Of a stretch of DNA of 64,000 nt, positions 2,902 through 60,365 are shown piece by piece. Every line of letters starts with the position of its first letter. Position 1 is the stretch's first letter. Below the pieces are notes generated by a model. It was not told the origin of the DNA. It did not search any database and saw only the letters and a list, made by a program, of their open reading frames with translations. This stretch comes from Cyanidioschyzon merolae. Taxonomy: Eukaryota. Made by a program: the position numbers and the translations under genes. Where the stretch lies: assembly GCA_000091205.1 (NCBI GenBank), contig AP006487.2. One strand, written 5' to 3'.

Positions 2902-5540
2902 TGTAAGCGTAGGGTACTCTTAGCTGTGCCAACCTCTCCCGACACCTTTACATATCCCAGAGCGTGCGAGTTCTGAACCCGAAACGCTACTCAGTGGAAA
3001 GCGCTTGTCGAGTGTCGACACGAGCGCCGCTTCCCGTTCCCCGGCAGCAGACCAGCGGCAGCAAGCGACGATTCGGGGGTTCAGGGAGGTGCCGATCCGC
3101 AGCCTGCTGGGACGGGTGCGCGCTCGCCAGCAACGCAGGCCGCCGGATACCGGGGCATGTCCACGGTGCACTCGCAGACGGCGTCGGGGTAGGCACGGAC
3201 GGCAGAGTGGGTATCCGTATGGGCGCTTGAAGGGAGCCTGATTGCCGCAGAGGTCCTCTTCGTGATTCATGGAACTTGAACGAATTTATGCGGCATGCAT
3301 CTTGCTTCGCTGGCTCTCGATAACAATCGCGCAGCCGTGGAAACCTTTGTTCGACGCATTGATGCCGCACCCGATAAGGACTAGGGAATGGAGTATGCGA
3401 GAGCCCGCTCCGTGCATCGCTGATGGTGTACGCAGCCGATAGCTCTGTTGCGCGCTTTCGCTTCAAGGAGCATCGCTGGGGACGCATTCGATGCATGCTG
3501 GTCGGTTTCATACCGAACAGAATTTGCGGTCGATCGACGATGACTCCAGAGCGTTCGACCCGAAGTTGATCGAGCACCAAATGTTGTTCAGCAGGTAGCT
3601 TCTGATGGAAGCTTTTGTTGCTGGTTCGCGGTGATGGACTCGGCGGTTGCCGATGTCTGGTGTGTTCTCGTGCGTTGCACGTTCGCGCACTGCGCCTTGG
3701 TCAGATACGAACGAAGCACGGATGTGCTCGTTTTGTTTCTGCGTTACGATCTTTTCTGCAGTTTTTGAAGATGAACTGCGCCGTCATTGGAAGTTTGCGT
3801 GTAAGAGCTTATGGACTTGCATGTAGCTCTAGGACTTTCGGTCGACTTTTTTGGAGTTGATGCTTCTCCGCTCGAATTCTGTTCTACACGGGAATCGAGA
3901 TGATTCTCGTCGCTCCTGGACCAGCATTCGTGCAAGAACTGATATCACGATACAACTCGCACGTATAGGCTTCCATTTTCCTCCTCGCCTTACGTGCAGC
4001 ATATTCAGATCACGGAAAAATCAGTTGTTCGATGTTGCTGTTTCAACGCAAGTTGCGTGCGCTGCAATTGGCGCCACTGGATGGACATGACACAAAAATT
4101 TGGTGTCGTCCATTGACGATTCGTTGAAAAGCACATGTGAAATGTTCTCGGAACATGTCACGTAAAATAACCAATTCCATTCCAAGTCCGTATTCTTGTA
4201 AGTTTTCGATCAAAGATGAGACGGTGCTCCAAAAGAGTATGGTACCTCCCAGGGGATATGCCTCCAGAATCACATGGTTTCGCTGTTTGCATGGAAAAAA
4301 GTTCTTGGGGCTCGGATTTTCCGCAAAGAAACGATCTCTCTCAAGGAGAAAAGCGTCATCGCTTTGCACGAAGCAAGCGTGGACGGATCCGAATTCGTCG
4401 AATTTTATCCATTCCGGACGCTTTTCCAGGTACTTGTTTCTTCATGGACAACAGCGTCGCGTTCCGTAAATCCTCGATCGAATGGGGCAACGAGCGTTTC
4501 TCTGTGCTGCGGTCAGAACACTCGCTGAAGAGATTTGGTAGCAGAAGCCCATTTTCGTACGGTACGGAGCTCGCGGGCAGGGTAACCGTAGACGGAATCC
4601 AATGGGACCTTCTGAGCCCGTCAAGCACATGTACCGAATGATATGGCAAGCGTTTGCACGCAACGCGGCAGCTTCACGAGCAGGAGATGTGCTTGACATT
4701 TGGGATCACTTGACGACCGTCAAGTTTCACTGCTGCAAAGCTAGCACCGAGGCAATATACAAAAGCATGAAAGCGGCAAAAAAGCCTCGATCGCATCTTG
4801 TGTCTGTGCATGAACTGCGTCACCAACAGGCGGATGCTGCGAAATCGGGAATCAAACGCCGCCACCTGCATCCTTCGGCTCTTGACAACGGAACTGGGAT
4901 CACAAGACACTCGTGCGCATTCAGAGCCGTAGACTAGAGATAGCAAAAGGAAGCTGTGCCCAAAAATTCCACAAACGCCGGTGTTGATCGTATTCAGAAT
5001 AGTCATAAACTTTGGTGTGAACGCCCGTGTTTTTCCCAGTGCACTTTTTTTCAAGCACGATTGCAATAGCAAAGCGTCTGGTGCAAGAGCGTTGCAATCG
5101 CCGTCGCTCCCAGGATACCGATCTGCCGTACGCGCCGCTGCAGGGTCCGCGGATCGCGCGCCCGTGCCAAGCAACGCATCCGCCCTTGGAGCGTTACGCG
5201 CAATGCATCGATGCGATGCATTGCGCTGCGCGCTGCAGGATACCCGCCTGCAGCCGATGCCGTGCGGTGTTCGATCTCCGCATCGACTTGCGTTCAGCGT
5301 TCCAGGGGTTTCGGTTACCGCTCAGCGGCACCTAGGAATCAGAACGCTGTGGAACAGAGCGGTTCTAGGTCTAGTGGACTGTGCCATTTAAATTCTAGGA
5401 AACTTGAACGTTTCTACGGGAGCAATACATCGTCAGGAACCCCAAAACATTAAAGTGTGGGAAGCTGTCGCCACGCGCTGCAAAGGTGCCCGCGTACGGG
5501 TGCGAGCTGCCGACTGTACCGAACAGAATTCGGTCTGAAA

Positions 5541-6302
5541 ATGTTTAAATCTAAACTATATCGACGCTCTTGGCGGAAAAGGCGACAAGATAATCAGCAG
5601 ATCCTGAGAAATCGGGTGCTCAAACGCAAGCAGCAGGGGCAGGAACAGCAGCAGGAACAGCAGCAGGAACAGCAGCAGGAACAGCAGCCCTGGCGACTAT
5701 GCGCGGACGTGCACGCCCTGTTCCATCGCCTGAGTGAGCACAACGCCCCCGGCGAGAAAGATATGGCACACGCTTCTCCTATGCAATCCATTACGAGGCC
5801 CGGTTCGTTGACATGTACCAGTCCGGCGCTTCGCAAAGTTCTTTCTGAGACCCGGGCAGAACTTTTTCGCACGCGGGATCGTCTCCGGGAGACGCAGCAG
5901 CAGGTCCGTGAACTGGAACATGATCGGACGAGCCTCGAGCAGGCGCTCATGCGTGTCCTTGAGTTGGATCAAGTCCTCCAGAATGGGCAGACGCCATTCC
6001 GTGCTTCCCACGTCTGGGAAACTCCACGAGAGGATCGATTGTTTTCACGTGTCGGGGTGGCGAGCACCCCATGGCTGGAGCGGAGCACGGTGTGGTTCTC
6101 CCCCCGAGAACCCAACTCTGCGAAACGAGCGTTGATCATTCAAGAGGCCCTCGAGAAACGATTTCCTCAGGAAAGGGCCCCTCGTGACGAATGGGACTGT
6201 TCACCTGTTCTCCAAACGAGCGATCTGACAGCGGACCACATTTCTTTACCTAGGAATGACACATCCGCAGCATATGAACACTTTGCCGATCGATCTATAT
6301 GA
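5541..6302 (+). CDS. Hypothetical Q/E-rich coiled-coil protein
   Basis: ORF track starts at a GTG at 5457; first ATG in frame is 5541 (MFKSKLYRR). Contains (QQEQ)n low-complexity tract and a predicted coiled-coil segment (RDRLRETQQQVRELEHDRTSLEQALMRVLELDQVLQ). No recognisable catalytic domain. Confidence 0.35.
   Translation: MFKSKLYRRSWRKRRQDNQQILRNRVLKRKQQGQEQQQEQQQEQQQEQQPWRLCADVHALFHRLSEHNAPGEKDMAHASPMQSITRPGSLTCTSPALRKVLSETRAELFRTRDRLRETQQQVRELEHDRTSLEQALMRVLELDQVLQNGQTPFRASHVWETPREDRLFSRVGVASTPWLERSTVWFSPREPNSAKRALIIQEALEKRFPQERAPRDEWDCSPVLQTSDLTADHISLPRNDTSAAYEHFADRSI
5637..5690. repeat. 12-bp microsatellite (CAGCAGGAACAG) x ~4, coding for a Q/E tract
   Basis: Directly visible tandem copies cagcaggaacag within the 5541-6302 ORF. 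Confidence 0.9.
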
Positions 6303-13761: not shown

Positions 13762-13982
13762 AAACTTGCAGCGGAGTTTGCTTTAAGTCAGTTCCCCGAA
13801 AGGCGTCGTGCGCTTAACCTGTTGCACAGGCGCACGTGCCAGCACAAAGTGGCAGCGTTATGGATCGGCGCACACCTGCACATAGCAGCGTTCACGTTTG
13901 TACCCGTGGCTGTGCAGCCCAGTGTTGTTGCAGAGTCTGCGTCCAGGAGAGTGCAAGGAAGCGGCATGGAACCGCACACCGA

Positions 13983-15345
13983 ATGAGGTCTCGTGATCGA
14001 GTCATCTACGAGTTTGACTCCGTTCCCGCTAAACTCTGTCTAATAGAAACATACATCGACTGAGGTCTCGTGATCGATTCATCTACAAGTTTGACTCCGT
14101 TCCCGCTAGACTCTGTCTAATAGAAACGTACATCGACTGAGGTCTCGTGATCGATTCATCCACGAGTTTGACTCCGTTCCCGCTAGACTCTGTCTAATAG
14201 AAACATACACCGACTGAGGTCTCGTGATCGATTCATCTACGAGTTTGACTCCGTTCCCGCTAGACTCTGTCTAATAGAAACATACACCGACTGAGGTCTC
14301 GTGATCGATTCATCCACGAGTTTGACTCCGTTCCCGCTAGACTCTGTTTAATAGAAACAAACATCGACTGAGGTCTCGTGATCGATTCATCCACGAGTTT
14401 GACTCCGTTCCCGCTAAACTCTGTCTAATAGAAACATACACCGACTGAGGTCTCGTGATCGATTCATCCACGAGTTTGACTCCGTTCCCGCTAGACTCTG
14501 TTTAATAGAAACATACATCGACTGAGGTCTCGTGATCGATTCATCCACGAGTTTGACTCCGTTCCCGCTAGACTCTGTCTAATAGAAACATACATCGACT
14601 GAGGTCTCGTGATCGATTCATCCACGAGTTTGACTCCGTTCCCGCTAGACTCTGTTTGATAGAAACATACATCGACTGAGGTCTCGTGATCGATTCATCC
14701 ACGAGTTTGACTCCGTTCCCGCTAGACTCTGTCTAATAGAAACATACACCGACTGAGGTCTCGTGATCGATTCATCCACGAGTTTGACTCCGTTCCCGCT
14801 AGACTCTGTTTAATAGAAACAAACATCGACTGAGGTCTCGTGATCGATTCATCCACGAGTTTGACTCCGTTCCCGCTAGACTCTGTCTAATAGAAACATA
14901 CACCGACTGAGGTCTCGTGATCGATTCATCCACGAGTTTGACTCCGTTCCCGCTAGACTCTGTTTAATAGAAACATACATCGACTGAGGTCTCGTGATCG
15001 ATTCATCCACGAGTTTGACTCCGTTCCCGCTAGACTCTGTCTAATAGAAACATACATCGACTGAGGTCTCGTGATCGATTCATCCACGAGTTTGACTCCG
15101 TTCCCGCTAGACTCTGTTTGATAGAAACATACATCGACTGAGGTCTCGTGATCGATTCATCCACGAGTTTGACTCCGTTCCCGCTAGACTCTGTCTAATA
15201 GAAACATACATCGACTGAGGTCTCGTGATCGATTCATCCACGAGTTTGACTCCGTTCCCGCTAGACTCTGTCTAATAGAAACATACACCGACTGAAGTCT
15301 CGTGATCGATTCATCTACGAGTTTGACTCCGGTCCCGCTAGACTC
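13983..15345. repeat. 77-bp tandem satellite, ~17.6 head-to-tail copies
   Basis: Unit gaggtctcgtgatcgattcatccacgagtttgactccgttcccgctagactctgtctaatagaaacatacaccgact repeated contiguously with a few point variants (c/t, a/t, aaact/agact). Each unit contains an inverted repeat ctcgtg...cacgag (6-bp stem, 11-nt loop). No unique spacers. Confidence 0.95.
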
Positions 15346-15985
15346 CATGTTTCGTACGAGGCGCTCGCGAGGATCACCCGCGTGATACTGGGACGCGCTC
15401 GAATGCGTTGCACTCACAGAGCCTCAGTTCTCACTGGTCCCCGTGGGGCATCGTATTTGGGACGGCTTCTGCCGATGCATCATGAATCTAATCGATATAT
15501 GTGTATCTTCAGTCAGCGTGGTGATTGCATCTGTATCGCTCTGCGAGGTGTCTGGGCTCTCCGCGAATGCGTATGGTGCCCGCATCGAAAGTTTCGACAG
15601 ACGGGGTGCCAGTGGTAAAGTGAGGCTGTAACCAGGCTCTTGGAAAGACGCGTTTATCGAACAGCGCTCTGTTCATGATGTAGAACGTGTAAACACGAAG
15701 CTGCAGTCACGACATGTGCTCTGTGAAAAACAACGAGGGCCCAGGTATGCTCTGGGCCATCGCTTGGAGACAGGCTCCCTCATCCTCCATCTGTTTTGCA
15801 CAGGAGAGAGGCCGCATAGTCAAGAGATCAGCGGCCTGACATGTGTACGATGCAAAGGTAGCAGTCAGAGCCTTCTGATCCACCGGGTGTTTCCAGGACG
15901 CCCGGCGCTGCACCTACGGAGCTCGCGCTTGCGCTGGACTCTAGGGTTCAACACCCGTAGCGCTTGTCTGTTTGCGGTCGGTACT

Positions 15986-18395: not shown

Positions 18396-19289
18396 GCTCC
18401 AGACCTCACTGAAAGCACGTCCGTAACAGTCGCACTGATGGACTTGGCCCTGAAGCGCTCACCGAGACGCAGCGACAGTACGGCTAGGCGCAAGCGCTGC
18501 GCCCTGGCGATGGAGGCGCCCTCACAGAGCCGCTGTGCCAAACTGCCGAGCGACTCTCCCTCTACAAGCAAGATCGAAGCGCCGAACTAGAATTCGGTCT
18601 GACTTGGGGAGTTGCAGACTGTGGTCAGGGAAGAGAGCTTCATCTCTCGGAAGGTGACTGAACACGCCGCAACTGCTCGACCCCGTCTTCTCGCCGGGCA
18701 CGATCACAAGGTGAGAGCCGCGCAACGCTACGGGTATCCAGCCTTGCCCAGAAGGTCGTAGCGACACCTGCAACCTCAATGGTGTGAGATGCATGAGTCT
18801 GAACAGGTTCGCATTGGGTGCTAAAGTGGTTTCGGGGAATACGAAAGGGATCCAGGTTCCTGCAGGTACACTGCTGCTTACGACAACAGTCTGAGTACAA
18901 TTGCTCCGTGGAAGTGAGGCCGCGTCCGTGTCAGCATTATTTGGAACGGGTCGTGCGTCTCTGGCGTATACGCTAAACTTTGACGCTGTTTGCAGTGGCT
19001 TGAACACTGGTCGAGCTGTCTATATCTGCTTCTACTTCCTATTCCTCTCTGTTCCCTCGGATGGAAACGCGCAGGTCTGTCGATTACGTCTAGCTCCGTT
19101 GCCAGCAGTCGAAACATGTTGGTGGCAGCCTTGCAGTCCTGATTTCGCCGCATTCGGCTCTTGTCAACACATCGCAGAGAAAGACAGTAGTTGCGGTCTA
19201 GATTTCGCTTTCCATGTTCATCTTCTTTGGACACAGCGAGGCGCTTCGCAAAAGGTGAAATTCGGCGACGCTCAGGTGCTCCAAGATGT

Positions 19290-23210: not shown

Positions 23211-24544
23211 AACCTCCGGTCACTGCGACGAACGGAGTACCAGGACTATTTCCAGAAGTGATGAACGCAGATGGCGACGCATCGTTCACAGATGCTTTGG
23301 GGTCATGAAATGCGTCAATCACAGCCGCAAGTGTCGAAATCGGTACTCGAACGCTGCCACCAAAATGCTTGGATCGCTGACAACGGACCTGGAAGCGCAG
23401 CAGAGAACCTACTAATCAATGCCGGATATGAAAGATGGGAAAAGCAAGCAGGCATAGAAAACGTTCGCAAAGGCCAATAAGGATGGTATGGAGAAGACAA
23501 CAGCATTTGAATATGTATGCCCGAGTTATAGGGCCCGTTCTGTTTTCTAGTCTTCCAACTCAATTGTGTTTCCCCTCAGATGCGGTGAATAGCAGGAGGT
23601 CGAAATCACGATGGCATGTGTTGTATAGCTTGCAGACGAGGTGACTGTAGGATATATTCGTTACTGAATAGTTCAGGGAGAACTGCATTCCTGCTTCGGG
23701 TGAATCATAACACTGTGCTCAGATATCTGAGGAACACTGAAAGAAACAGGTACATGCGTTCCGCGCCAAAACTGGCTCAGTGAAAAACTGCCCGCAATCA
23801 ATCGTATGAAACGGCTCTTTAATCGCCTTACGGAGAACAAAAGCGACGACAGTAGCTGCCAAGAGCGTCTACGTATCTGAATACCTCGTTGGTGCGGTCC
23901 TGAAAATACTTGGGTACAGTCGCATATAAAGTCCAATGTCATTCACGGCCATCTTCAACCGAAATGTCCATTACAGCATTCCAGGGAAGTCGCCATCCGT
24001 ATGAAGCACAGGGATGTGGGTTTGTTTTTCCAGTCGATGAAACTTCCTTCGAACAGAACGGTCAGAGCATGTATAGGTACCCGTGGAGACGGAGCCCGTT
24101 GTATGTGCGATCGAAATCGAAGCGAACTGAGACATCATCACCTGTTCTCGCTACAGTAGATACATTTGGCGGCCTTCGTTTCTCTCCTAGAGAAGGCTCA
24201 TGCAACAGCACCATGCATTTTGTCAAATCACTGAGGACTTTTCTCAGACGCCTGGCGACATCTTTCTATTGGACAACGAGGTATTTCATCTTTCCTCCTC
24301 CGTTCGAGATTTTGCCGATTCTATAGGGATAGGCTTGCTTCTCGTTCCGCCGTACGCTCCGTGATTCAAACCAATCGAACGGGTGTTTCCTATCGTGAAA
24401 CGTAATGATCGCTTCACAGAGCGACTCACTGAAGCGTTCAGCACACGGTGATTCCAGGGCAAATGCCGTCTTGCTTCCGCAAATCCTTCTCGCTCCGAGG
24501 GGGGTCCTCTGGCGAGAGCATAAAGGAGTAAGCTCATTTTAAAG

Positions 24545-24930
24545 AAATTAAGGGATGAGCCGGGATGTAAACTCCTGAAGGCCGAAATGGAGGAACGTCA
24601 GCGAAGCACTTCGGATATAGAAAAGCCCGGAGCGCTGTTCGAGCAGCAAATGGCACAGAGGGCACGAGTTCGAGGACTCCGTGCACTGGTGCGTTCAACG
24701 AGCTCCAACAAACGCATGGAGTTCGTGAACAGGGACGAAAACGCTGCTATCAATATCAGACGATTTGCGGTGCCAAAAACGGGACCCGATGAGCAGACCC
24801 GATCCAACGTTGTGGGGTCAGCGTCTCAAACTCGAATTGCATATGGATAAACAGAAACAGGTAGCAGCCGGCAGGCAGGCAGGCAGGCCGTGCAACACTG
24901 GAAGGCGGCAGCACGTCGGTATACATTGAG
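24545..24930 (+). pseudogene. TnpB/Fanzor-like relic A: C-terminal RuvC-III segment plus conserved 3' non-coding tail
   Basis: Encodes QRARVRGLRALVRSTSSNKRMEFVNRDENAAINIRRFAV, matching the RuvC-III D-x-NAA-x-NI signature of TnpB/Fanzor. Nucleotide homology to copies C, B, D, E continues ~100 nt past the ORF end. No upstream nuclease domains remain. Confidence 0.45.
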
Positions 24931-25276
24931 CGTAACGACGCGAAGCGTTTTCGCTCTGATAACCACATAGCCCAGTCGTCGTATGCTTTTTCTGAGAACC
25001 GTTTCTCGTGATAGTGAAACGCATCGCAGTGGTACTGGTTGCGAATACTTCGCCAGGAAGGGTTTAAAAATCTAGTGACAAGCTGGGGCGTCTCTCCACA
25101 CTCTTGAACGGACACCGGGGACGCCTCCAGTTGCAGCGCACAGTCGTATGAGCTGCTGCCGCGTCGCACTGTACTCTTAAACGGACACGTGGGACACCCT
25201 AAGTTGCAGATCGCGTACCGCTTGTGGCTCTTCGGTGCACCAGCTGAACGCCAGGCTCTCAGGCAGAGGGCGAGCG

Positions 25277-29444: not shown

Positions 29445-32400
29445 CGCCACAGGCAGTACAACCGAGCATTTTGCCAGCAGCACCGCGCATGAGACGCAAA
29501 TCTACAGTTGTTGTGGCTGCATTCCTGTGCAATGACGACGGTTCCTCAGTGTATCGATCTGGACCTGGAATGTACTACGAAATGCTGCAAGCATCGAAGC
29601 GATGCTGTGTCGATATGCACCGGTTCCCCGCTGTATTCATATGCTCGATTCGTGCGGGACACGTGGAGGCTTCGACTCTCTGCGCCACCCTGAACAGAGA
29701 GCGTGCCCGCTACCTATCGCTTGTTACTTGCTACCGGTCTGGTTGGAGCGCTTTCATTGATCTCCTGGGGAACGCAGGAAAAAAGACCAGTTCGAGTCTG
29801 GCAATTGGAAAAGCGTGCCCCAAGTTTGACGCCCGTCTGAAGCATGCCATCACATCCTACGTCGCTGCTAAGGTCGTTTTCCGAATAATTAATTTCAGTT
29901 GGGGCTGCGTCGCCAAGCCGCGGACCCCGGATTTTTACTACTGTATCCATAGCGAACAGCGTAGTGCACTCCACTATAGGAAAACGACGAGTTGAGAGTC
30001 TCCTTTGGCACCTTGCTGACTATGATTTGGATTGCGAACTCCATGTGGAGTCGGTGCTGATCCGTTTTGCGCCAAGGAACAGCAAGTGTTCCATCCTTTT
30101 CCATAAGTGCTGTGGTGCAACGAACCACTTCAGCGAGCTCGAGTTGTAGAATCTCTTCGACAGTCCCTGTATACAGAGCAACTGCCTCTACTGCGCCAGC
30201 AAATGCGCTGATTGCGACTACGCAAGCGGTTCCCTGCTGACCGCAACACTGTGCAAGCGATGCTCAAGATACCGAGCGGTGCTCGGTACGTCCAAGATTC
30301 ACAGCTCCCAAGCTGTCGATTTCGCTTCAGAAAGCTGATCAAGTGGATGCTCCGTACAGCTGCGATTCGTAATGCAAACAAAGCACCAGGATACGCCTCG
30401 AGCGACATTGACCACAGACAGCTTGTAAATATGTCGCGATCGAGTCTATACATCGACTTTAGGGCAATTTGGGTTGAACGTGGGCATATTGCGCCACCCT
30501 CTTGCGCATCTGAGAGCACACCAGCACCCCAAGCATTCGACGCATAGAGGAATAGATCGCAGGCGTCGGGATCAAGCCGTGCCGCTTCCGCATGTCCGGA
30601 ATTTTTGCCGGCGATTGGCCAGATGCACGCTGCTACTACTGGAGCCAGCGCCTGCAGTATCTTGAGTAATCGTCAATTCCTGAGATGTTTTTGGTTGCAA
30701 TCAGAGCAGCGAATGTCCGATTACCCGTACCAGCACGCTCTTTTGGTTATTGTTTGGTTTTCTTGCAGGTATTCGATAAAAAGAATGCATCGTGTCGATC
30801 CGATTACAGTCGCTGGATGAATTGGTATTGTCTGTGGTAGCTCGCGAAAAGAACGGCCCCACCTGTGCCTGTCCTTCTATAATGAACTGGGGCATGAACC
30901 GCTTTTCTCATCGCTCTGATCCGACACGTCAGTCTCCCGCAGTAGAACCCTCCAGAACCTCTCTTCGACTGTTTCCTTGCCGATTGATTGTGTAGCGTAC
31001 TTGGATGAAGAAATACTACCAAAGTCACCGCTGGATTTTGACGCCTCCGTACCGCTAATGACAACGGTGATGAAGAGACCCAGAAATACGAATCGAAAAG
31101 CACGCCTGTATGCTAGATAGTCACGCGTCGAAGAGCGCAAGACTGATCTCGTCGTGAAACGCGAGCGCTTATCACAGGACGAACGAGAGTTCATCTCGTG
31201 CAACGAAATGTCCTTCGGGGGAAATGGTACACCTGCACTTGGCTACGCAAACCGGAGCAAACCACTGTTCTGAAAGACGAGCGAAACGGGACGGACGACA
31301 ACACCAGCCCTAGCAGCGATTTAATCCCTTGATCACCGAATCGTCGCCGAACGGACAAGATCGTTCAACAACTCGTGCTTGGTCGACGTATTCTGTGGCT
31401 TCTTTTTTCCCATTTTGTTCCGTCCGGCTCGTAGGTATCATCGGATTGCGTCAATCAGGAGCGGTCAAGGACACCGCAGCTGGCATCGCAGTTGAGCTGG
31501 TCTCTGTGCTGGCTTGTTTTCTCTGGCTCAATCGAAACGAATTCGTTTTTCCAAGACATCCCAGAGCATTTCTATGTTCATCGATGATTAAACGAATCTT
31601 TCGCGTTCGCGACACCAAAATATGCTGCGTACTTTTACGGATCGCAACCCCCCTTCACCGCGCTCGTCTTGCCTGGCTTTTCTGTTTCCTGCCTCGACGC
31701 GTCTCCTCAACCGATTGTTCATACAAGTTTCGGAAGCGAGATCGCCAGTTGTCTACACTCCACTCGATTTTTCGATCAAACCTTCGCGCGACAACACGAC
31801 ACAAATGTTCAGAGCAGATGATGCGATTCGACGTGAGCGAGGCATCAGCGTTTTGCGCATATGCGTACCAGCATATCTTGCCGCGTCGCCGCGCCATCTC
31901 GACGATCGAAGTATGTGAGGTGCCGGTCCTAAAACGTACCAGGCAAACCTCAGAAAGCAACATCATGTCCGGGTTCAGTTCGGGCGCTTTATGAGGCGCG
32001 CATTGTCGACGTTTTCCAGTCATGGTACTGGCCCAGAAAAGTGGGCACTGTTTGAAGGTATGCTACCGTTCAGAGAGAACACGAGCGATCAAGCGGCGCA
32101 CGCGGACGATCGTTACGGGGCGTTCATACGAGCGCGCGGAGGTCACCAACAGTTTCGGTTGTACAGAAGCAAGAAGCGTACATGCACTCACTTCGACTAA
32201 GAGTTGTAAACGAAAATCTCCGATATGTCGTGTGGTTGGGTGCCAGGCAATGGCGCTGGAAGCACTGGAGCGCGCGATGACTGCACCCTTGCGGACTTGT
32301 GGACGGCGTCCAACGAGTGCGGGAATCGATTCCATACGACTCCCGTAGATGCATTCAGGACGATGCCCTCGCATCAATAGCATGGGTGCTCAATGAAACA

Positions 32401-33692
32401 GGCAGAGAAAAAGCACCTGAAACAGAGCCGGATACACGAGACGGTGTACGTCAGGCCGAGCGAACATCAGCTGGCGAGAATATTGACGACCAGAGGATTG
32501 CAAAAGCGAGATTTCAGGAGCAAAATACCTCGATGTACATCCGGGAATGTCCGGTGTTCGCACAGCGCCCAACAGCTTGGTGATCAACGAACCTTTGAGG
32601 GAATCGCGCAGTACTTCGTGTAAACACGGATCTGAAACGCTGAAGACTTGCGATGGAAAACAACAGTGACCATGACAGCGTGTATTTCATCCATGTTTGA
32701 AGCAAGACACTTGTATGAGACGGTTCAGCAGTCCAGAATGGCTGCCATGCCCCATATATACACATGGAACGGTTTTCCTAGAAATTCATGAACGAATATC
32801 CTGCTCCGTAATTCGACTTGACGATGTACCGACATGCAAAGCGGCGTCCTAGGTGCTCTAGCCTAGACGCCCGCCCCCGAAGACCTGCACGGTGTCGCCC
32901 TGCGAGCCTTATTTACCGCACCATACATCCCTGGGATATTTATGATGGCTCCGGCCTTGAAGATCACGCGTTTGTGTGTACGTCAGCAGCGTCGATGCGT
33001 CGCTCTAAAATCCATCTACACAGGTGTTCACGGAATGCTCGGCATTTAAAAGCGAGCCCGCTCAACTTCGTATACAATGTGTCATGCATGTAGACTTGCA
33101 TTTTCGAACGAGATCCGTCATTGGGGCACCAGCTCGAGACTGATCAAGCATCAAGCTTCGTGCACGGTAGACAGGCTGTGCTATGAACGGTTCGGCATTC
33201 GACGCCAGGCGCTGAACCCAGACTTGCGTCACCGTACAGTGCGTTTAGGGTTCCATCAGCAGTGCCTCGTTCTTTGCGTTCGTCCTGCAATTCTCCAGGT
33301 CATAGAAGCGTATCCGCAGCATGAAACTGTTCAGTGTGAGCCGAAGTAGCAACATCCAGCATAGGCATTGAAGCGCGTGTCCTATAGATTCCAAGTGCCT
33401 GTGAGCGCTCCCGCACCGGCGATGCACCTTCGTACGAGGACGCGCTCCATACCAAGTCAGCCGAAACATTTCCTATGAATCAAGTGAGGCAGAACTCGCG
33501 ATTTGTGCACTAATCCAGAAGCACGCTTTCGGGAAAGCTTAGCAACAGAATTCGGGCGATTATGTTTTGGTCTATGGTCGAGTCTTGGCTGGGAATCCCA
33601 GCTACGCAATGGATACCGACGTCAGGGAAAGCGCTAACGCATACTCGGCACTCTACGGATTATATGAACGAGCCGTTGCCTCCAACAGGGAA

Positions 33693-34090
33693 TATGGATG
33701 TATCCGGCGAGATATAGAGACCTGGTGCGGAATGACTAGTGATTTCATAGGCACCGTTGAGGTAGTCGTCTGCAGGGAACTCCTGCTCGTGTCGCAGAAG
33801 CTGCGTTACCGCCACACCAGCATCGAGTGGTATCCGGCGAGATATAGAGACTTGGTGCGGAATGACTAGTGATTTCATAGGTACCGTTGAGGTAGTCGTC
33901 TGCAGGGAGCTCCTGCTCGTGTCGCAGAAGCTGCGTTACCGCCACACCAGCATCGAGTGGTATCCGGCGAGATATAGAGACTTGGTGCGGAATGACTAGT
34001 GATTTCATAGGTACCGTTGAGGTAGTCGTCTGCAGGGAACTCCTGCTCGTGTCGCAGAAGCTGCGTTACCGCCACACCAGCATCGAGCAG
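33693..34090. repeat. 130-bp tandem repeat x3
   Basis: gtatccggcgagatatagagacttggtgcggaatgactagtgatttcataggtaccgttgaggtagtcgtctgcagggagctcctgctcgtgtcgcagaagctgcgttaccgccacaccagcatcgagtg recurs at 33700, 33830 and 33960. Three overlapping minus-strand ORFs encode the same peptide (MKSLVIPHQVSISRRIPLDAGVAVTQLLRHEQEFPADDYLNG...). Confidence 0.9.
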
Positions 34091-40277: not shown

Positions 40278-41799
40278 CCGCAGTCACCGAAAGCCTTCAC
40301 AAACGCAAGCACAATGCGGGCGCTGGAACGCACCACCGGAGGTGCTCAGCTTCCGGAGGATCCCGATACACGTCGCGATGGCGGACACGCGGGCATTCGA
40401 ACAGCGGCCGCCGTCGGCATCGCGCACACCCAGCGCACACACTGCAACGGCCGGGGTGCGGCGGCGCTCATCAGGGACGGATCAGCGCCGGCGTGCTGTC
40501 CTCCGGCGCGGGGCTGTCGACAGCCGTAGAGCGCCCGCCGTTCCCGCGGCTGGAGAGGCGGCGGCGCTCGCAGTTCCCGCTGCACCCTGGTGCGAGTCCG
40601 GGAGCCTGCACCTTCAGGTTGCAGCACTGAGGGCGGTGGGGATCGGCGTGGGCGCGCCCAGCTCCACAGCATGGCAGGTCTCTGCATGGAGTGCATTTGC
40701 ACAAGAAAGTCGCATCGAGGACTCTGCGTATCTGGACTGCATGTGCGCTTTGCCGATACACGTATACCAGAATAAGACGGAACAGGTCCACGCAGCGAAC
40801 ACGGGCGTGCCTAATAAAGTTTTGATCGCTTCCCGTAAGAGTCAACACAAGATTTTGTGCGTATTTTTGTGACTTGTTATTTTTATTGCTCTTTTTTTGC
40901 TGAATTTCAATGTGCTGGTCTCTAATGTGTCTGCAGCTCCGTTTGTCAGCAGTCGAAGAATGCTGATGGCAGCGTTCTCCTCCCGAGTTCGCAGCATTCG
41001 ATTCTCATTCACGCATTTCGAACAGGCAGGCTGAAGTTGCGATCTCGGCTGCGCTTGTCATGATCATATCCTTTGTAGACAGCCTCAGTGCGCCCTTTGC
41101 AGCATGAACCTTGGCCACGGTCAGTGATTACCGTACGTGCACGACACGACACCTCTTCCGAAAAATGCCCTGTGCCGCACCAAGGAATGCTTCGCTGATC
41201 GGTGTGCGCGTTTGACTGGTACAGAGGGCCCGATGTGTTCCCTGTATTCGTTTTCGCGCCCGGTGCCGTGTTCTCCGATCATGGGCTTGCTCATGGCGAT
41301 CCTTCCAGGGTGTACGCTATCCCCTGCACGCACACGCTGTAACATTGGATGGGCGATTTTTTTGGAACGCGATCTTGTTCATGATGGAGCGGTTGGCGGA
41401 AGGGAATTCCAGGATGGTGAGCAATAGAAAAAATTTAGAGTCGTTTATGTTCAGTTCCTAGAACGCAGTGACATACTCTCTACTCTGAGTAATCGCCGCA
41501 ATGACTGGTGTGCAGCACGAGTCGTTGCTTCCGCTGTGAGCGGCGAGGCTGGATATCGGCGTCATGGCTGGTGCCTGCTCGCAGACGGGTGCTGCGATGG
41601 TCACCTGGCACCGCTTATGGCACCCAGAGAACCGCTTCTGCTGCACGTTCGAACAGACGACGGAGCCAGCGGACCTCTGTGACGACCTCGAAAGCTAGCC
41701 AGGTATTCCAGCTCCTTTGGCGGTGTTCCGCGACGGTTTCATCTCGGCAATGATGCAGCGGATGCACCTCGAGGACAATGGAAACCTACGCTTATCGAA

Positions 41800-42485
41800 G
41801 TCTGAGCGCGTCTTGTCGCAACGAACTCCAGAGACTGGCATGTTTCGCGTCTCGCATGATACGCTGGCCTCGTTTTAATGTTGCACCTCATTTGTGTTCC
41901 GCTTGCAGGTGCGTGTCATCAAGTGCTTCCTCGCGGGTTATAGCGGACGTGTTCAAAGAGCGTCCATTTTCAAAAATAAACTATCCTAGGGAGATGTGTA
42001 TGTATGAAAATCGGGGATCCTGATGTGCTAGTGTCGCCGGTTTCAACAGAAAAAACGAAAAATTCTCTTCTCACCGACCATCGAGCGAAGGAGAGCAAGT
42101 TTTATGAAAAAGTAGAAAAAGAGAGGAACGGCGGGTGAAAAGTTTTTGTATGCCTGATGTGACGATTACGAGACTGTAACGGGACAGAGGGCACACTGAC
42201 GAAGGCGCCTTGCATTGATGAGTCCCATCAGAGGCAGCAAACGCATGGAATTCGTGAACAGAGACTTGAACTCCGCCATCAAAATCAGACCATTTGTGTT
42301 ACAAAAGGCGAGGCGCGCGGAACTTACGTTAGCGAAAGGTTTGGGACAGCCTCTCAGGTTCGAAGTGTACACGGGACAAATTGAAACCGATATCTGGTTG
42401 CTGGTCAGAAAAAGGCTTCGAGGCGCCTGTGAGTGCGTATCATTTTCCCCTGTCGAGCCGACGCTCTCTGTGGTGCGGCATAGCC
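41800..42485 (+). pseudogene. TnpB/Fanzor-like relic B (~680-bp element; subfamily with relic D)
   Basis: Encodes SKRMEFVNRDLNSAIKIRPFVL; shares ~680 bp of nucleotide homology with 54380-55055 (e.g. gtgtcatcaa[a/g]tgc, atcgagcgaag[ga]aga[gc]caag, acagagggcac, gcattgatg) both upstream and downstream of the RuvC-III-coding segment. Confidence 0.45.
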
Positions 42486-43099
42486 GTTCTGTCTCCGTGC
42501 AAGGACCGCATCGGCCCTGTAGACGCTATCGCCGACGCTCTGGGCATGCACTCGGCGCACGATAGAACGTACGGAACGACCATTATATCCGAGAGAAAGT
42601 ATGGGTTACGGAACGTGGAAGTAAGGCGTGGAATGAGGGATACCTTACAGCGCGCTGATGACGAGCGCAGAATCCGAGAACGCTCGCCACAGCAACCACT
42701 TTGGCATTTTTTCACTGACAAAACGTTTACTTAGGCCAGCGTTCTCCGATTATGCGCTTTTTTCTTTTCTTTCTTTTTTTTCAGTGCGAGGTGAGGTATC
42801 CATCAACCCCCTACCTCCATGTTACATTACCTATACTTCGTCTCGGATATTCTGGTCGTTTCATACGTCCTATCGTGTGTGCCTAGTACCTGCCGTTCCG
42901 TATTCGCGTCTGCGCTTGAACCGCTGGAGCAGATAGCTCATAGGGCTAAAACAGCTTTTCTATACCACAGAGGGCGTCGGCTCGAGGTGTGCTTCATCCG
43001 ACGTAGAATCGGGTCTCGTCGTCAGTTTGTGCTCGTACAGTCTGCGGATGCAGGCTTGCCTTCGCTGCACGACACGCTGGAGAAACTTGGTTGTTAGGA

Positions 43100-46000
43100 T
43101 GAATTCTGGGAGCTGCCTCTCTCCTTCGTGATCATGCATGGAATGCATTGTTGTCGGTTGGCTATGCGGATTTGTGCTTGACACCCACTACAGAAGGAAG
43201 GCGTAGAGAGCACTAAACCCGTGTGCGCATCCGATCCGCTGGACCTTCCGCCTAGAAGGTAGCACGTGAGTTTGTTGGCCACTAATGAGCACTGAGGATC
43301 TGTTAGCGAACCATCAGTTGCCAGTGCTGCACTCAGAGTGAGTGTCCGGCCTTCGACTATCACGGTGTTGCCGAGCTGCTGCTGTCCTTCGAGGAGCTCG
43401 CTGCGCTCCTGCTTCTAGCGCGGCCACTGTAGGCCTAAATATGTCAGCGTCTCGGGGATTTCGTCTCGATAGCAGGTACAGTGTGACTCCCAGTGCGATT
43501 CCAGGGTTCCTATCCGGCTTAGAGCCGGTGCTGGTAGCCAGGAGCCACCAACGCTGATTTTGGCGAGCCACTGGGTACCTCGAGCAAGTCCCGGGAATTC
43601 CAGCGCCTCCCACCAGTAATTGCATGTGTATGCTAGGTTGTAGTTCCGGTATAGAGTCAAGCCGGCGTTACTCGCGCGACTGGTACTGTATCTACGTTCC
43701 CATATTGTTGTTCGGACCGTTCGCTTGAGGCGACGGGAGAATTCTATATTCCTGGGGAATGATTGGGTAGCGTGTTTTCGCCTAAGAGGCGCTTCAGCCA
43801 AATCTGCGCTGATTTCATCCAAGTGATCTTGCGGTGCGTTGGGGTCTGCATGGATATCCGACTGAACCAGGTGTTCATGGTTGGCCCTTTGCCCCATATG
43901 CGTGCCCGGCAGCCTGCTGCTATCGCCTCTGTCGAGGGTATTTGGAGTTCAAGTCCGAGTGCCAGCAGGTTGGTTGCTCTGCTCTGCATTGAGCATCCAA
44001 CTACAACGAGTCGCATTGCCCTGTTGGCGGCTGTCTGCAGACGCGAGGCATTTGTGTGCTTCATGCCGCACCATTCAGCACCACAGGTCGCAGGCTGGAT
44101 GATACATATCCTTAGTGCGCTGGTACGGATTGCTAAGGGGATAGAGGGGTCGGATAAGAATGGGCATGCGATCGCTGTACGTCTATGCATCTTGGCGATC
44201 ATCTCGTTAACGTGTGCCTTTTCGTCGAGCGTCGGCGTGAGACAGACCCTAGGTAGCGATATTTTTCCACGATTGGAATTTCCTGATTCTGCAACCGCCA
44301 CGAGCGATTGCGAATGCTCTGCGAGTCTCCATGGATGGCCATGACGCCGCACTTCGATGCTCCTATGCTCATCTCCCAGCGATCGGCCCAGGCGCTGACT
44401 TGTTCCATGCTAGCCGCAAGCGTTTCCGGGGCGGGTGCCAACAGCACGACATCGTCCGCAAATAGAAGGCCTGCGAGGCGGTTCCCATATGGGCGCTCCC
44501 CATCGGGCATCTCCACAGTCTATCCACGGCACCTCAAGCCCGTATTGTCTGTAGTTGTTAAGCAGATCGTTGATGAAGATGTTGAAAAGGAGCGGGGATG
44601 CAGGATCGCCCTGTCGCAGTCCACGGCGGATTCTTATCGAAGGGGTTCTTGAGCCGTCGCCTAGTCGGATGCGCATCCACGAGTCTGCATAGAGCGCACG
44701 GAAGAACGCTAAGCACTTTGCGGAGACTCCGGCTCGTTCCATCTTCATAAATGGAGCCTCATGCGGGAACGTGTCAAAGGCCTTTTGGAAGTCGACGAAG
44801 CATACGTAAGTTGGTTGTTGGTCGCTAATGAAGCGACGTTGCACCACTTCAATGAGGGTCAGGGCATGGTTCATGCACTCCTCGTGGCTCCGGAATCCAG
44901 CCTGTTCTGGGGCGAAGAACTTGCGTTCCTGGAGGCCGCTGTGGATACGGTTCGTGAGCATGGCGCGAAGTAGCTTCATGATTGACGGGATGAGGCGCAT
45001 AGTCCGGTAGATGTTCATGTCTGTGTGTGTGTGGGAGTCCTTTTTGAGGATCGGTACGACCTCGACAGCCCTCCGTACATCTGGGATGTACGCTTCTTCA
45101 AACATGCGTTGAATGAGCTCCAGAAGGCGTTTGCCTAAGATTGTGTCAGGTTCATCTGGTATCGATGGTGTCCCTGTTGTCCCGTCTTTTGGGGTCGCCA
45201 GTTTCATCCACTCCGCAGGGATACCGTCGATGCCAGGTGTTTTGCGATTGCTTGAGCATAGCAGAGTCCGAACAGATTCAGGCCAGAAAATTGGGTCGTT
45301 CCATTCCGGTACCGGGTCGAGGCGCGGTAGTTCTGCAGCATATCGGTGCCAATAGATTCGGTCTTAGCAGTGCCCAGTTGCGTCTTCATGTAATTCTGTG
45401 CCGTGGTCCGTCCAGGCCTCATTCACTGAGGCACGCTCCGTCCTCAGCGCTTCCTTTTAACAGTTGGTGTGAGCCCCAAGCACTTTCTTGGTGGGTCCAG
45501 TCTCGATCGGATGTAGCCTGGGGTTTCATCTTCGTTGGTGCTCTTCAGCATAGATTCCGCCAGGGAGGCCATTTTGCGGTTTCGATCCTCTCGTTTGTCT
45601 TCTCTGGAAAGTTTCTTCGTTCTTTTGATAGCTTCCTCATGTTGCGCCTGTAGCGCCGGTAGCGCTGCCTTCGCTTCCTTGTCTCCGGCGTTGGCGCGTA
45701 TGGCGGTGCGGTTGACAATCTTGTTGAGTCGGTGGCATTCATGAATCCGAGTTTTGGTACGTCGTTTGAGGTACTGCGGCTTGCTACTGTTGTGTTCAGG
45801 TGCAAGCAGTCCCAATTTTCTGGCAATCTTCTGATTCCCATCTACAAACTCGCGTGCCAATTGGTCTGAAGATTTGTATTCACGGCTTTTCGGATCTTCA
45901 GCGCTGTGAGCAGGTGCCTGGGATTGGCGACGGCTTTCTTGAGTTCCAGCTGGGGTGCCCTTTCGGGGGATACCTTGTGATGGGCTCGTTTGGGAGTTCT

Positions 46001-46350
46001 TCTTTCTATTCTTCTGTTTTTTCTTGCTGGTCTACTTCTTCTTCGGGCTCTTTCCTGAGCTGCTTTCTCTGGTTATTTTGCATTTAAGGGGATCATGAGG
46101 TTTCTGTGTCTCTTTCTCCGTACCTCGTTGGGTCTCTTTTCCAATTGTAGAGTCCTCGACTTGTATCAGTTCTTCATTACTGTACTGGTAATTCGATATC
46201 TCGTGGTTAAATACCGAGGCGATCCCGCTAATATTCCATGATGCGAAACCTATCGAGTCGTAGCGCATAAGGGAATAGGAGTAACGCTGCGGTACTCCAG
46301 AGATACGTTGTCGATTTAGACGCAGCTTCCACAGGGTGTGTGAGAGCACA
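43100..46350 (-). mobile_element. Degenerate non-LTR retrotransposon (LINE) with APE endonuclease fragment and reverse transcriptase
   Basis: Minus-strand ORF fragments in series. 46032-46349 carries an APE N-terminal motif (IGFASWNISGIAS). 45444-45860 is the RT N-terminal region. 44410-45207 carries RT domains 1-5 (FRSHEECMNHAL, DFQKAFDTFPH, RGLRQGDPASPLLFNIFINDL). 44199-44516 carries FADD (LLFADDVVLLA). 43415-44352 carries the thumb/C-terminal region. Frameshifts occur between fragments. Confidence 0.8.
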
Positions 46351-47348
46351 TGCCACCATTGCCTCCTGCATTCCAGTCGTTCACTGAGTGTCTGCCGCAG
46401 CGCTAGCGTAGAATCAGATGTACATTAGTCAAGGTCGATTCGAATGCGAACTTTGTCTTTCCGGACGCGTGAAGCTACCCTCAACCATTGGGAAAAGTCT
46501 GCAAACCACCATTTCAGCGGCTTTGTATCCGCTCCCCAAACACATAGGCGGGCAAGTCGCTTATTCCACTTTCGACAGTGAGCATACTGCCAGCTGTCTT
46601 CCAAAGTATCCGCCGAGATTGTTTCCAAAGTTGAGGTAGGTACTCAAGGTAGAAGGTGAAACTGAGCCCGAATTCAGGGATGGATCCAGTATTTGTGCCC
46701 GAACCTGCAGCGTTGTTTCGGGAGCAGCGGATGACTGCGCTCAGAATTATCGTCATCATTCTCTGCTACTGCCTACGCCCCTCCGTTCGTTGCGGTCAAG
46801 GCCCCTGGCGTGGACTTCCTTCGCAGTCGCTCAAGCACCCCGCGTTAACCCACTTTCAGAGGTTCTCCGGAAAGACTAGACCCCTTAGGCGGACGTGGTT
46901 TGTGGGGCTTTTAAGATAGTGGTTCCTTGATAAATAGTTTGCGACTAGTTTGCATCGCGCTCGGTGAGCGCACCTCGGAGATCGGGCAGGCATGAGACGC
47001 TACGCGCATGCCACTGTTGAAGGGAAACACGTGACCTTGATCAATAGCGTGTTGTTCTGCTGTAAAAGTCGGATTCCCGTTGAGGGCGTAGCAAAGTATA
47101 GTTTTCAGTTCATTTCTGTTTCAACCCTCAAGTAAAAATACTCGAGTGTTTTTTCGCAGTATATAAGAGAAGCGTTCAAAGAGCATTCTTTTTAAAAAAA
47201 CTAAAAAAAGGAAAAGTATGTAGGAGCAAGTCCACGATCCTGGAGGCCCACTGTCGCAGGCTGCCAGAAAGAAAACAAAAAACAGTGCCGAGTCCAGAAG
47301 AACAGGGAGAGAGAAGAAGAACCGAAGAGGGGAGGCCCTACGTCGAAG

Positions 47349-48990: not shown

Positions 48991-49117
48991 CCGCCATTGC
49001 TGCGTACTGCCGGCGTCGTTCGACTTCGAACGGCGTTCGTGACCGAAGCTCATCCGCGGATCCAGCTGCACGCCGCTGCTTCATTCAGGACGCGTTGTAT
49101 AACAACGTCAGGGAACC

Positions 49118-54379: not shown

Positions 54380-55055
54380 AAGTCGCGCGTGCCGTGGAGG
54401 CGAACGCTGTCGTTCATTCGGCAGCGCTCGAGGCTGGCACCGACTTGCCCGACTAGATGCACTACTTTTTGCTCTTTGACCACAGTGAGATTGATTAGTC
54501 AGGTGTGTGTCATCAAATGCCTTATTCGGTTTATAGCAGATGGGCTGCAAAGTGCGTTCATTTAGAGAAATAGAGAATATAAGATATAGGTATGGAGATT
54601 GAAGTCGAGGATCCTGGATTGCCTCTGTCCACGGGTGTCGGAAAAGAACGGGAATTTTCTCATCTTTTCGACGATCGAGCGAAGAAGACCAAGAAGAGGG
54701 GAGATGGACCACAAAAATGTGTTTGCCCGACGGGGCGATGACGAGAATCTAATCGCACAGAGGGCACGAGTTCTGGCAATCCCTGCATTGATGCGTTGCA
54801 CCAGATGAACTGCATAGAACGGCTCGTGAACGGAGACTTCGACGTCACAAGCAATATCAGGAGATGTGCGGTGCTGAAAACGAGACTCGCGGAGCTGACG
54901 CGAACTAAATTCGAGTGGCAGCCTCTAATACCCCCAGTGTGCCTGGATAAAAACCGCAACCGATGGCAGTCGGCGGATAGAAAAAGACTGGGCGGTGTCT
55001 GCGCGTGGGCAGCTATATGTACTCTCGATGGTGGTAAAACATTGCACGTTTTATA
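54380..55055 (+). pseudogene. TnpB/Fanzor-like relic D (~680-bp element; subfamily with relic B)
   Basis: Encodes AQRARVLAI... and ERLVNGDFDVTSNIRRCAVL in adjacent frames (RuvC-III region with a frameshift); extensive nucleotide homology to 41800-42485 on both sides. Sits ~90 bp upstream of the PTC7 start, on the opposite strand. Confidence 0.45.
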
Positions 55056-60099: not shown

Positions 60100-60365
60100 C
60101 ATAGGCACACTTGGCAGCGGTCAAATGTCACCGCTGTGAAGCGCGGACCCCAGCTGTACACAAAAACAGATGAAAACAGCAAGCGAAGCGCGGATCGCGA
60201 TTTTCACCTGTGCATGGTTTGCGTGACCAGCAGCCGGACGCAACGGAATCGGAACTCGAATGCCGCCATCAACAACCCGCGAATGCTGAGAACGGAACCG
60301 AAGACTCACGAGAGACCAGCATATGTAGATCAGCAGATAATCGAGAAGGAAAGAAAGTAGTCTCA
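60100..60365 (+). pseudogene. TnpB/Fanzor-like relic E (zinc-finger CxxC + RuvC-III remnant)
   Basis: Encodes HLCMVCVTSSRTQRNRNSNAAINNPRMLRT (CxxC followed by N-x-NAAIN); nucleotide similarity to relic A (cgaa..c.c..atcaa / aaaacgg.acccga.g). Confidence 0.35.

Follow-up and report, generated by a model that had tools for sequence, protein, structure and literature searches.

The omegaRNA scaffold that serves the Fanzor1 protein SpuFz1 is 75 nt long (Saito et al. 2023, Nature 620:660). In S. punctatus, ghost loci have kept the omegaRNA and lost the protein (Saito et al. 2023). Helitron2 elements have hairpins at both ends, and the text that Bao and Jurka devote to them states that some carry Fanzor1.

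For Cyanidioschyzon merolae, the text of Bao and Jurka (2013, Mob DNA 4:12, PMC3627910) describes CMe-1A as the sole Fanzor1 family, with ~150 copies that are each ~80% identical to a 3169-bp Repbase consensus. According to the same text (PMC3627910), the family has no terminal inverted repeats (TIRs), no target-site duplication (TSD) was determined, and the 5' 635 bp of the consensus are another repeat, TE-N2_CMe. The CMe-1 protein is classed there as Fanzor1, and its C-terminus is given as ...KKRMEFVNRDFNAAINIRRCAVLEKRPPELTRENFVGQPLKVELYEKKLEAVVGGRSKKTGRRLHVSWRRFV, i.e. ...RRLHVSWRRFV (PMC3627910).

We analyzed a 64,000-nt stretch of C. merolae DNA, hereafter the window. The original prediction, made from the letters of the window, grouped five loci (A to E) into one dispersed family of TnpB/Fanzor 3' modules with a conserved non-coding tail, which it took for a candidate omegaRNA or right-end scaffold. 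We put a probability of roughly 80% on a different joint explanation, in which dead relics of CMe-1A and a separate family at E account for the loci, and the right end of CMe-1A is a likely omegaRNA scaffold.

The element in the window agrees with the published CMe-1A in the genome it inhabits, the C-terminus ...RRLHVSWRRFV, the 3' end ...GAAAGGCG (the 3' terminus of the published consensus), the lack of TIRs, and the ~80% identity of copies to the consensus. The TE-N2_CMe 5' part is missing from locus C and from most of the copies examined; otherwise nothing essential differs. Like Spu-1, the element of SpuFz1 (PDB 8GKH), CMe-1A is a single-ORF element of ~2-3 kb whose protein has the same fold, and its tail resembles the omegaRNA region in position and size. 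Short protein-less derivatives of ~550 nt are a further likeness to Spu-1, but in those of CMe-1A coding fragments are retained and the tail is a different one. The 30-nt inverted repeats and the CA motif of Spu-1 have no counterpart in CMe-1A; SpuFz1 has a CCCC zinc finger, whereas CMe-1 has no CxxC pairs; and the SpuFz1 omegaRNA was shown by RNA-seq and cryo-EM, whereas that of CMe-1A is predicted from sequence. With IS200/IS605 TnpB elements and Helitron2, CMe-1A shares the absence of TIRs and, apparently, subterminal hairpins at both ends. As in IS200/IS605, the candidate guide region would overlap the right end, and it may also reach into the last part of the ORF. CMe-1A differs from IS200/IS605 and Helitron2 in having no associated TnpA or RepHel gene and in its eukaryotic host.

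Four of the five loci are relics of CMe-1A

The 3169-bp CMe-1A consensus aligns to loci A-D at 73-88% nucleotide identity when compared with the window by blastn. Locus A (24555-24836 in this alignment) corresponds to consensus positions 2737-3020 at 73% identity, and locus B (41913-41980 and 42209-42288) corresponds to positions 826-894 and 2862-2944 at 77-81%. Locus C (46956-48639 and 48634-49015) is the closest, matching positions 648-2251 and 2767-3145 at 84.6-88%, and locus D (54527-54650 and 54824-54903) matches positions 847-964 and 2908-2987 at 73-79%. Because the consensus aligns to the loci, their identification as CMe-1A is essentially settled.

The loci are also homologous to one another on the + strand (66-73% identity, E values of 1e-8 to 1e-17 in blastn). 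An HMM of the CMe-1A family, built from 94 database homologues and run on the six-frame translation of the window, detects A (E = 1e-28), B (5e-11), pieces of C (1e-46 to 1e-95), and D (1e-6). The conceptual protein of C matches 94 proteins, and a scan of metagenome contigs yields more than 433 tblastn-confirmed copies of the family. A further relic, which the original prediction did not list, lies on the + strand at 31805-32500; it is strongly diverged and is recovered by tblastn and by the HMM (E = 2.9e-5 and 1e-3). The homology that had been claimed for five + strand loci thus holds, by blastn and HMM, for A, B, C, and D but not for E, which belongs to another family.

CMe-1A is the source of loci A, B, C, and D and of the 31805-32500 relic, all on the + strand; they are dead transposon relics on a chromosome of C. 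merolae 10D. The elements at A-D were already known, the family having been catalogued for C. merolae in 2013. Identical 10D proteins exist for four long ORFs of the window: BAM79367.1 (PIP5K), BAM79380.1 (p21-activated kinase), CYME_CME163C, and BAM79387.1. The window as a whole consists of ordinary intron-free genes with transposon debris between them.

A common orientation of the loci had been noted as having a chance of 1 in 16. All five CMe-1A relics are indeed on the + strand, but the two-sided p value is 0.06, which is not significant. When the family of E is included, eight remnants are on the + strand and two on the - strand (p about 0.11). No large duplications account for the orientation pattern. 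We treat the orientation bias as chance.

Locus C is a dead 2.1-kb element

Locus C, a 2.1-kb copy of the CMe-1A Fanzor1 element, spans 46952-49037 on the + strand, as do all of its features described here. It is 78-83% identical to L001/L002 in blastn and covers residues 9-502 and 675-752 of protein P0001 in tblastn. The left end bears a hairpin, GCGCTC-GGT-GAGCGC (46955-46969), recognized by eye in the left-end alignment. A TATA box, TATATAA (47160-47166), is located 52 nt upstream of the ATG (47218) and is kept in other copies, including B and D.

The ORF of C is dead, with a TAG directly after the ATG and frameshifts in addition. In its translation, the RuvC-I motif GVDPGNTN (48578-48601) is preserved, with D484 invariant in the alignment. 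A 515-bp internal deletion at a GATGG microhomology has removed RuvC-II, and in RuvC-III (KRGFNAAINL, 48780-48800) the catalytic D is replaced by G. The last 45 Fanzor codons, ...GQSLKGELYERKLEAVVGSQSKKTGGGRLHVSWRRFV (48846-48980), end with the stop codon TAA (48978-48980). The true non-coding right end follows (48981-49037) and consists of GGCG-loop-CGCC, the linker ATTGCTGCGTAC, and the terminal hairpin GGCGTCGTTCGA-CT-TCGAACGGCGTT.

The segment to the left of C (45135-46945) was considered as a part of the element and rejected, because this segment is a LINE whose reverse-transcriptase ORF lies on the minus strand. This LINE recurs beside other CMe-1A copies.

Loci B and D belong to a lineage of short deletion derivatives

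Loci B (41886-42512, + strand) and D (54502-55085, + strand) have the same layout, in which a promoter with a TATA box and an ATG are followed by ~45 codons and then by the last ~100 codons. In blastn, B aligns to L003 6463-6987 and D to L003 and L070; the 3' parts are detected by nhmmer at 42301-42512 in B and at 54872-55085 in D. The deletion junction, between ...DDE and TVMAQRARVRG..., is common to B, D, L003 6463-7040, L070 7633-8210, L062, L056, and L006. The shared junction and the dispersal to many loci indicate that a single deletion derivative has spread, and imply that it was mobilized in trans. B and D represent an old lineage of ~0.55-kb CMe-1A derivatives, which numbers ~70 genomic copies. 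The two loci do align with each other, as had been stated, but over ~550 bp instead of ~680 bp. Identity among copies of the short lineage is ~48-70%, and on other contigs these copies occur in both orientations relative to neighbouring full-length elements.

Locus A (24555-24955, + strand) is a 3' fragment of CMe-1A that corresponds to residues 665-752 of P0001. RuvC-III is retained, catalytic D included, and a premature stop interrupts the ORF at 24848. Up to 24955, the 3' part of A matches the short-lineage tail in an nhmmer search with the short-tail HMM and is unlike the tail of C. A 5' truncation of this kind was considered as a retro-like sign and set aside, since 3' fragments are too few (A, L055 1094-1200, and L036 923-1035). 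The motif KRMEFVNRD-NAAINIRR, which had been assigned to all five loci, is present in A, B, and C; it has decayed in D, and E is from the other family.

Most of the apparent common tail is coding sequence

The case for a shared non-coding tail had been built on similarity running 100-250 nt past the coding segment, with ggcggcagcacgtcgg from A and ggcgtctgcacgtcag from C quoted as non-coding examples. Both strings encode RRLHV(S), at consensus positions ~3074-3089, 20-35 nt before the stop codon at 3108-3110. They are coding because intact ORFs and the published consensus continue for 45 codons past NAAINIRR and end with ...GRRLHVSWRRFV and the stop. The ORF stops right after ...WRRFV in the published protein and at 20 of 80 loci; the other copies have earlier nonsense mutations. 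Most of the reported similarity is thus an artefact of premature stops. In B and C, the apparent tail up to the true stop consists entirely of the C-terminal coding region. In A and D, part of the similarity does extend beyond the coding region, the stretch past ...GGCGTCTGCACGTC being the tail of the short lineage.

Homology between C and loci A, B, and D ends inside the coding part, at ...GGCGTCTGCACGTC (about position 139 of 217 in the short-tail HMM, and consensus position 3020 in A). At the 3' end of B lies the ~60-75-nt tail of its own lineage, and A, B, and D share this type of tail with their own relatives, different from the tail of C. A covariance model of the true tail matches C (48975-49045, 70.7 bits; C itself is in the seed alignment) and gives no match in the window at A, B, D, E, or 31805-32500. 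A conserved non-coding tail is accordingly not a common property of the five loci: the model finds C alone, the A/B/D tail is a different one, and E is from another family.

These results bear on the view expressed in the original prediction, in which the five loci are ghost guide-RNA loci whose common scaffold still serves Fanzor proteins made elsewhere. The S. punctatus loci provide a precedent (Saito et al. 2023), B, D, and partly A share their tail of ~60-75 nt with relatives elsewhere, and two short-lineage relatives each form a stem of their own at the corresponding position (GGGTA/TACCC and GGCTG/CAGCC). However, beyond the coding part the tail of C is unrelated to those of A, B, and D, and E is a member of another family. 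The level of identity within the short lineage is consistent with neutral decay, the linker of C (ATTGCTGCGTAC) departs from the consensus ACTACTGTACAC at 4 of 12 bases, and there is no significant covariation (see below). For the five loci as one set, the view is largely refuted, and we judge it to be very improbable.

CMe-1A encodes a Fanzor1 protein

The proposal that the modules represent the 3' portion of a TnpB/Fanzor gene is borne out by profile, fold, and RuvC triad. A Fanzor1 profile was made from 43 diverse homologues; the exhaustive search gave 1232 clusters at E ≤ 1e-3. Against the PDB, the profile matches Parasitella parasitica Fz1 (9cf0, 2.7e-22), SpuFz1 (8gkh, 3.9e-12), and GtFz1 (9cer, 8e-6). 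An AlphaFold2 model (pLDDT 79.8) matches SpuFz1 in Foldseek (9ceu, E = 9.3e-17, target-normalised TM 0.70). The seven best PDB matches of the model are SpuFz1, PpFz1, and GtFz1, with E values of 9e-17 to 1e-13 and target-normalised TM of at most 0.72. In the 43 diverse homologues, the triad residues D484 and E656 (P0001 numbering) are invariant, and D725 is nearly invariant. The triad is incomplete in the window, where C has no RuvC-II and a D-to-G change in RuvC-III, A and B contain only RuvC-III, and the motif of D has decayed.

No significant match came from Pfam or PDB when the conceptual protein of C, A, E, or P0001 was searched singly, and Pfam PF07282 matches only weakly, in 7 of 43 family members. 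The link of the A-D family to Fanzor1 emerged only through the profile of diverse homologues and the structure model.

A CxxC...CxxC zinc finger between RuvC-II and RuvC-III is not found in the A-D family, which has HHELGC...C (DEFRTSYTHHELGCTLQRVEMEKCQR...GLLALVST) instead. As fold and triad are decisive, the family belongs to Fanzor1 despite the missing zinc finger. Nuclease activity of CMe-1 is not assured, because the family has no canonical CxxC...CxxC zinc finger.

Locus E belongs to a second family

The relic at locus E (60048-60357, + strand) comes from a second, apparently TnpB-like family. Once one frameshift is repaired, its peptide reads VKCHRCE...FHLCMVC...RNRNSNAAINN; both CxxC pairs are present, and the sequence looks like a canonical TnpB C-terminus. 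In blastn, E shows no similarity to the DNA of A-D; it scores E = 0.95 against the CMe-1A-family HMM and aligns to the Fanzor1 profile in hhalign with 71% probability over only 20 columns around RuvC-III. Therefore, E is a separate family. The E family has no match in PDB or Pfam, and a database search with it returned one 87-aa fragment only.

Relatives of E are located in the window at 4666-4929 (+ strand; blastn match 4707-4894), 19058-19237 (- strand; tblastn), 23230-23409 (+ strand; tblastn), and 40881-41104 (- strand; blastn match 40910-40977). E thus appears to be a relic of an older TnpB-like family with five remnants in the window, two of them on the minus strand, and the family seems to have gone unreported until now.

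The right end of CMe-1A has a constrained core

In intact copies of CMe-1A, a non-coding right end of 57-59 nt directly follows the stop codon. It begins with a small hairpin that has a fixed GGCG/CGCC stem and a free loop, continues with a near-invariant 12-nt linker, ACTACTGTACAC, and ends with a terminal hairpin that varies in sequence and keeps its pairing potential. Examples of the terminal hairpin are ACGTCGTTCGA-CTT-TCGAACGGCGT and, in L006, GGCCGGCGAG...CTCGCCGGC. The tail is present after nearly every Fanzor C-terminus, with 85 covariance-model matches in 82 loci. In 80 loci, identity is 85-90% through the stop codon and ~58 nt more, and then falls to background after ...GGCGTT. This point, where the copies diverge into their flanks, sets the right boundary of the element in the way that had been suggested. 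The ends of pairwise alignments cluster 45-50 nt past GCCACTACTGTACAC.

Nucleotide diversity is 0.13 in the core made up of the GGCG stem and the central part of the linker (CGCCACTACTGTACAC), 0.53 in the loop of the first hairpin, 0.36 in the terminal hairpin, and 0.69 in the flank. For coding positions, it is 0.085 at codon positions 1-2 of the RuvC-III motif and 0.20-0.29 at third codon positions. The value of 0.13, near the constraint on the catalytic motif, indicates that the right-end core is under purifying selection. No codon-position signature is visible in the last 15 codons, where the ratio is 1.07 versus 3.4 in the RuvC-III motif.

A tail that directly follows the stop codon, in an element whose own TATA box and ATG suggest a normal Pol II-type unit, could be the mere 3' UTR of the Fanzor mRNA, with termination or polyadenylation signals, and owe its conservation to its place in the transcription unit. 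However, 93% of C. merolae genes use UAAA as their poly(A) signal (PMC8831791), whereas TAAA occurs in only 1 of 47 non-redundant tails. Moreover, constraint on the core like that on catalytic residues is unusual for a transposon 3' UTR. The scarcity of UAAA speaks against an ordinary 3'-UTR signal, and transcription that reads through into the flank would be consistent with it. We consider a mere 3' UTR to be improbable.

Folding potential and element ends

The terminal 44 nt have a mean folding energy of -15.9 kcal/mol, compared with -11.1 kcal/mol for the flanks (p = 3e-8) and -9.5 kcal/mol for upstream coding windows (p = 1e-12, Wilcoxon tests). The sense strand folds at -25.4 and the antisense strand at -20.6 kcal/mol; a coding control shows about half of this asymmetry. 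In the terminal hairpin, G-U accounts for many of the most frequent pairs, and individual divergent copies have different stems at the same position of the tail.

The covariation check that had been proposed for the tail gave no significant result in tests for compensatory substitutions. With fixed columns (A6), 497 of 500 shuffles scored at least as high as the data. With the model-fitted alignment (A10), 67 of 500 shuffles scored as high for covariation, and 12 of 500 for percent paired. RNAalifold found only a 3-bp consensus helix in the last 200 nt of a MAFFT alignment of 48 tails. The 106-nt 3' region of C does not fold better than shuffled versions of itself (z = +0.27), and no Rfam family matches anywhere in the window.

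On the left side, the homology between pairs of copies mostly breaks off 50-90 nt upstream of the anchor, at the left-end hairpin, whose stems vary among copies (e.g., CGCG-GTCGATA-CGCG and CGCGTGCACGCG). The left boundary is blurred by TE-N2_CMe, a ~620-bp extension, or the LINE, which precede the unit in subsets of copies; the ~620-bp extension is distinct from TE-N2_CMe as it occurs in the published consensus. A search between the element ends found no terminal inverted repeats. No transposase, target-site duplication, or TAM was identified for the element, and neither the element nor the window was seen to contain a HUH or RepHel gene.

The right end may instead act at the level of DNA only. 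The left and right hairpins would then be single-stranded cis sites for a HUH-type transposase acting in trans, IS200/IS605-like or Helitron2-like, and no guide RNA would be involved. Hairpins at both ends without TIRs or a detected TSD fit this explanation, as do the terminal hairpin that changes in sequence but keeps its pairing potential, the spread of deletion derivatives that have only the ends, and the Helitron2 elements with hairpins at both ends, some of them with Fanzor1 (Bao and Jurka, in the text on these elements). Against it, a HUH or RepHel gene was not seen in element or window, and the G-U pairs favour a sense-strand RNA over duplex-symmetric DNA hairpins. We find it doubtful that the ends function as DNA only. 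A DNA-level role could coexist with an RNA role, since the DNA end and the omegaRNA overlap in IS200/IS605.

A proposed role for the right end

From the comparison with the known systems, the CMe-1A tail appears to be the best candidate for an omegaRNA scaffold. By analogy with SpuFz1 and TnpB, transcription would cover the right end, and maybe the last ~15 codons as well, and continue into the flank. The CMe-1A transcript would thereby supply the omegaRNA scaffold, and ~15 nt of the flank would be the guide. The Fanzor1 nuclease would cut element-free alleles, and the element would be copied back by homologous recombination. The same hairpins might also be the DNA ends for a transposase acting in trans.

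No copy in the window is now capable of the proposed mechanism. The full proposal combines two parts: a Fanzor1 that operates with neither TIRs nor the canonical zinc finger would have the 57-59-nt right end, perhaps extended by the last ~15 codons, as its omegaRNA scaffold, and B and D would be members of a protein-less lineage that is mobilized in trans and has a guide-like tail of its own. We advance this combination tentatively, at somewhat less than even odds.

The finding in the window is itself minor, as it concerns dead copies of a family catalogued in 2013. Its by-products are a description, at base resolution, of the CMe-1A right end, with a fixed stem, a near-invariant linker, a variable hairpin, and no host poly(A) signal; evidence for the spread of a deletion derivative that has only the ends; and a second, seemingly unreported family of TnpB-like relics. 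Neither the right-end anatomy nor the ~0.55-kb deletion lineage is described in the text of Bao and Jurka 2013 on the family.

If the right end is an omegaRNA, C. merolae would be a natural system in which to ask why eukaryotic transposons carry RNA-guided nucleases. C. merolae is haploid and almost intron-free, has efficient homologous recombination and gene targeting, and can be transformed. If the proposal is true, the alga would be a native and tractable host, with ~150 copies available, in which to test what a Fanzor does for its own transposon.

The 3′ end of CMe-1A

Some fragments of the Fanzor1 transposon CMe-1A keep the 3′ end only, and their lengths are very unlike, ranging from 107 nt to 400 nt. 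Such fragments lie at 1094-1200 of L055 and 923-1035 of L036, two contigs outside the window, and at 24555-24955 of the window (locus A). The 107-nt fragment comprises the non-coding tail that follows the ORF stop and about 35 nt of the ORF. That the 3′ end is kept while the extent of 5′ truncation varies might be a sign of the replication mechanism, or just the outcome of deletion.

In the CMe-1A family alignment, the last 15 ORF codons (...GRRLHVSWRRFV; window 48933-48977 in locus C) are equally diverse at the three codon positions, with a ratio of 1.07, whereas the ratio is 3.4 in the RuvC-III motif. Equal diversity of this kind would be predicted for a stretch that evolves as nucleic acid, whether under constraint or by drift, and not as protein. 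In GtFz1, the omegaRNA similarly overlaps 17 codons.

Repeats

Just upstream of RuvC-I, CMe-1A carries an acidic 75-bp (25-aa) repeat (window 48430-48583; residues 374-470 of the database homologue P0001; also in the homologue P0026). Its copy number differs among CMe-1A copies, and it is the sole long low-confidence (disordered) segment in the structure model. Elsewhere in the window are a tandem array of about 18 units with a 77-bp period (13966-15352; inter-unit identity, 94-98%) and a repeat of three units with a 130-bp period (33700-34087; 98% identical).

Sequences flanking CMe-1A copies

In the published CMe-1A consensus, a 635-bp repeat, TE-N2_CMe, makes up the 5′ part (PMC3627910). 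TE-N2_CMe fragments, in inverted orientation, lie directly downstream of locus B, at 42453-42623 (minus strand), 42810-43013 (plus strand), and 43237-43261 (plus strand). A subset of CMe-1A copies shares a left extension of ~620 bp before the Fanzor unit (L006 1606-2155, L027, L036, L055, and L003). The extension is distinct from TE-N2_CMe, contains a perfect 12-bp palindrome (GGACACGTGTCC), and is not present in the window.

A LINE-like retroelement occupies about 43000-46945 on the minus strand, with an RVT_1 ORF (44410-45207, minus strand; E = 3e-19) and an ORF with the FADD motif (44199-44516, minus strand). Its 5′ end adjoins the left end of locus C, and the same 1.8-kb sequence also flanks further CMe-1A copies in L011, L034, L039, and L061, where both orientations occur.

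A second TnpB-like family

Heavily decayed remnants of a second TnpB-like family, separate from CMe-1A, are located at 4666-4929, 23230-23409, and 60048-60357 (locus E) on the plus strand, and at 19058-19237 and 40881-41104 on the minus strand. Copies outside the window include L049 5406-5654, L002 13447-13731, L059, L009, and others. The family consensus reads ...HLTT..C..CE...KRSVDRNFRLC..CV...KQRNRDSNAAINILRLL. No intact ORF of this family was found, the sole database match being an 87-aa fragment. In the list of Bao and Jurka, C. merolae has a single Fanzor family (PMC3627910).

Deletion derivatives of CMe-1A

A ~0.55-kb deletion-derivative lineage of CMe-1A is defined by a single junction common to all copies. 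Two copies are in the window (41886-42512, locus B; 54502-55085, locus D); others are at L003 6463-7040, L070 7633-8210, and, on the minus strand, L062 ~4800-5320, L056 ~4470-4990, and L006 ~5820-6220. The 3′ tail of the lineage differs from that of full-length CMe-1A, and at one position in this tail two copies have unlike stems (GGGTA/TACCC versus GGCTG/CAGCC). The lineage is dispersed, which implies that it has been mobilised in trans.
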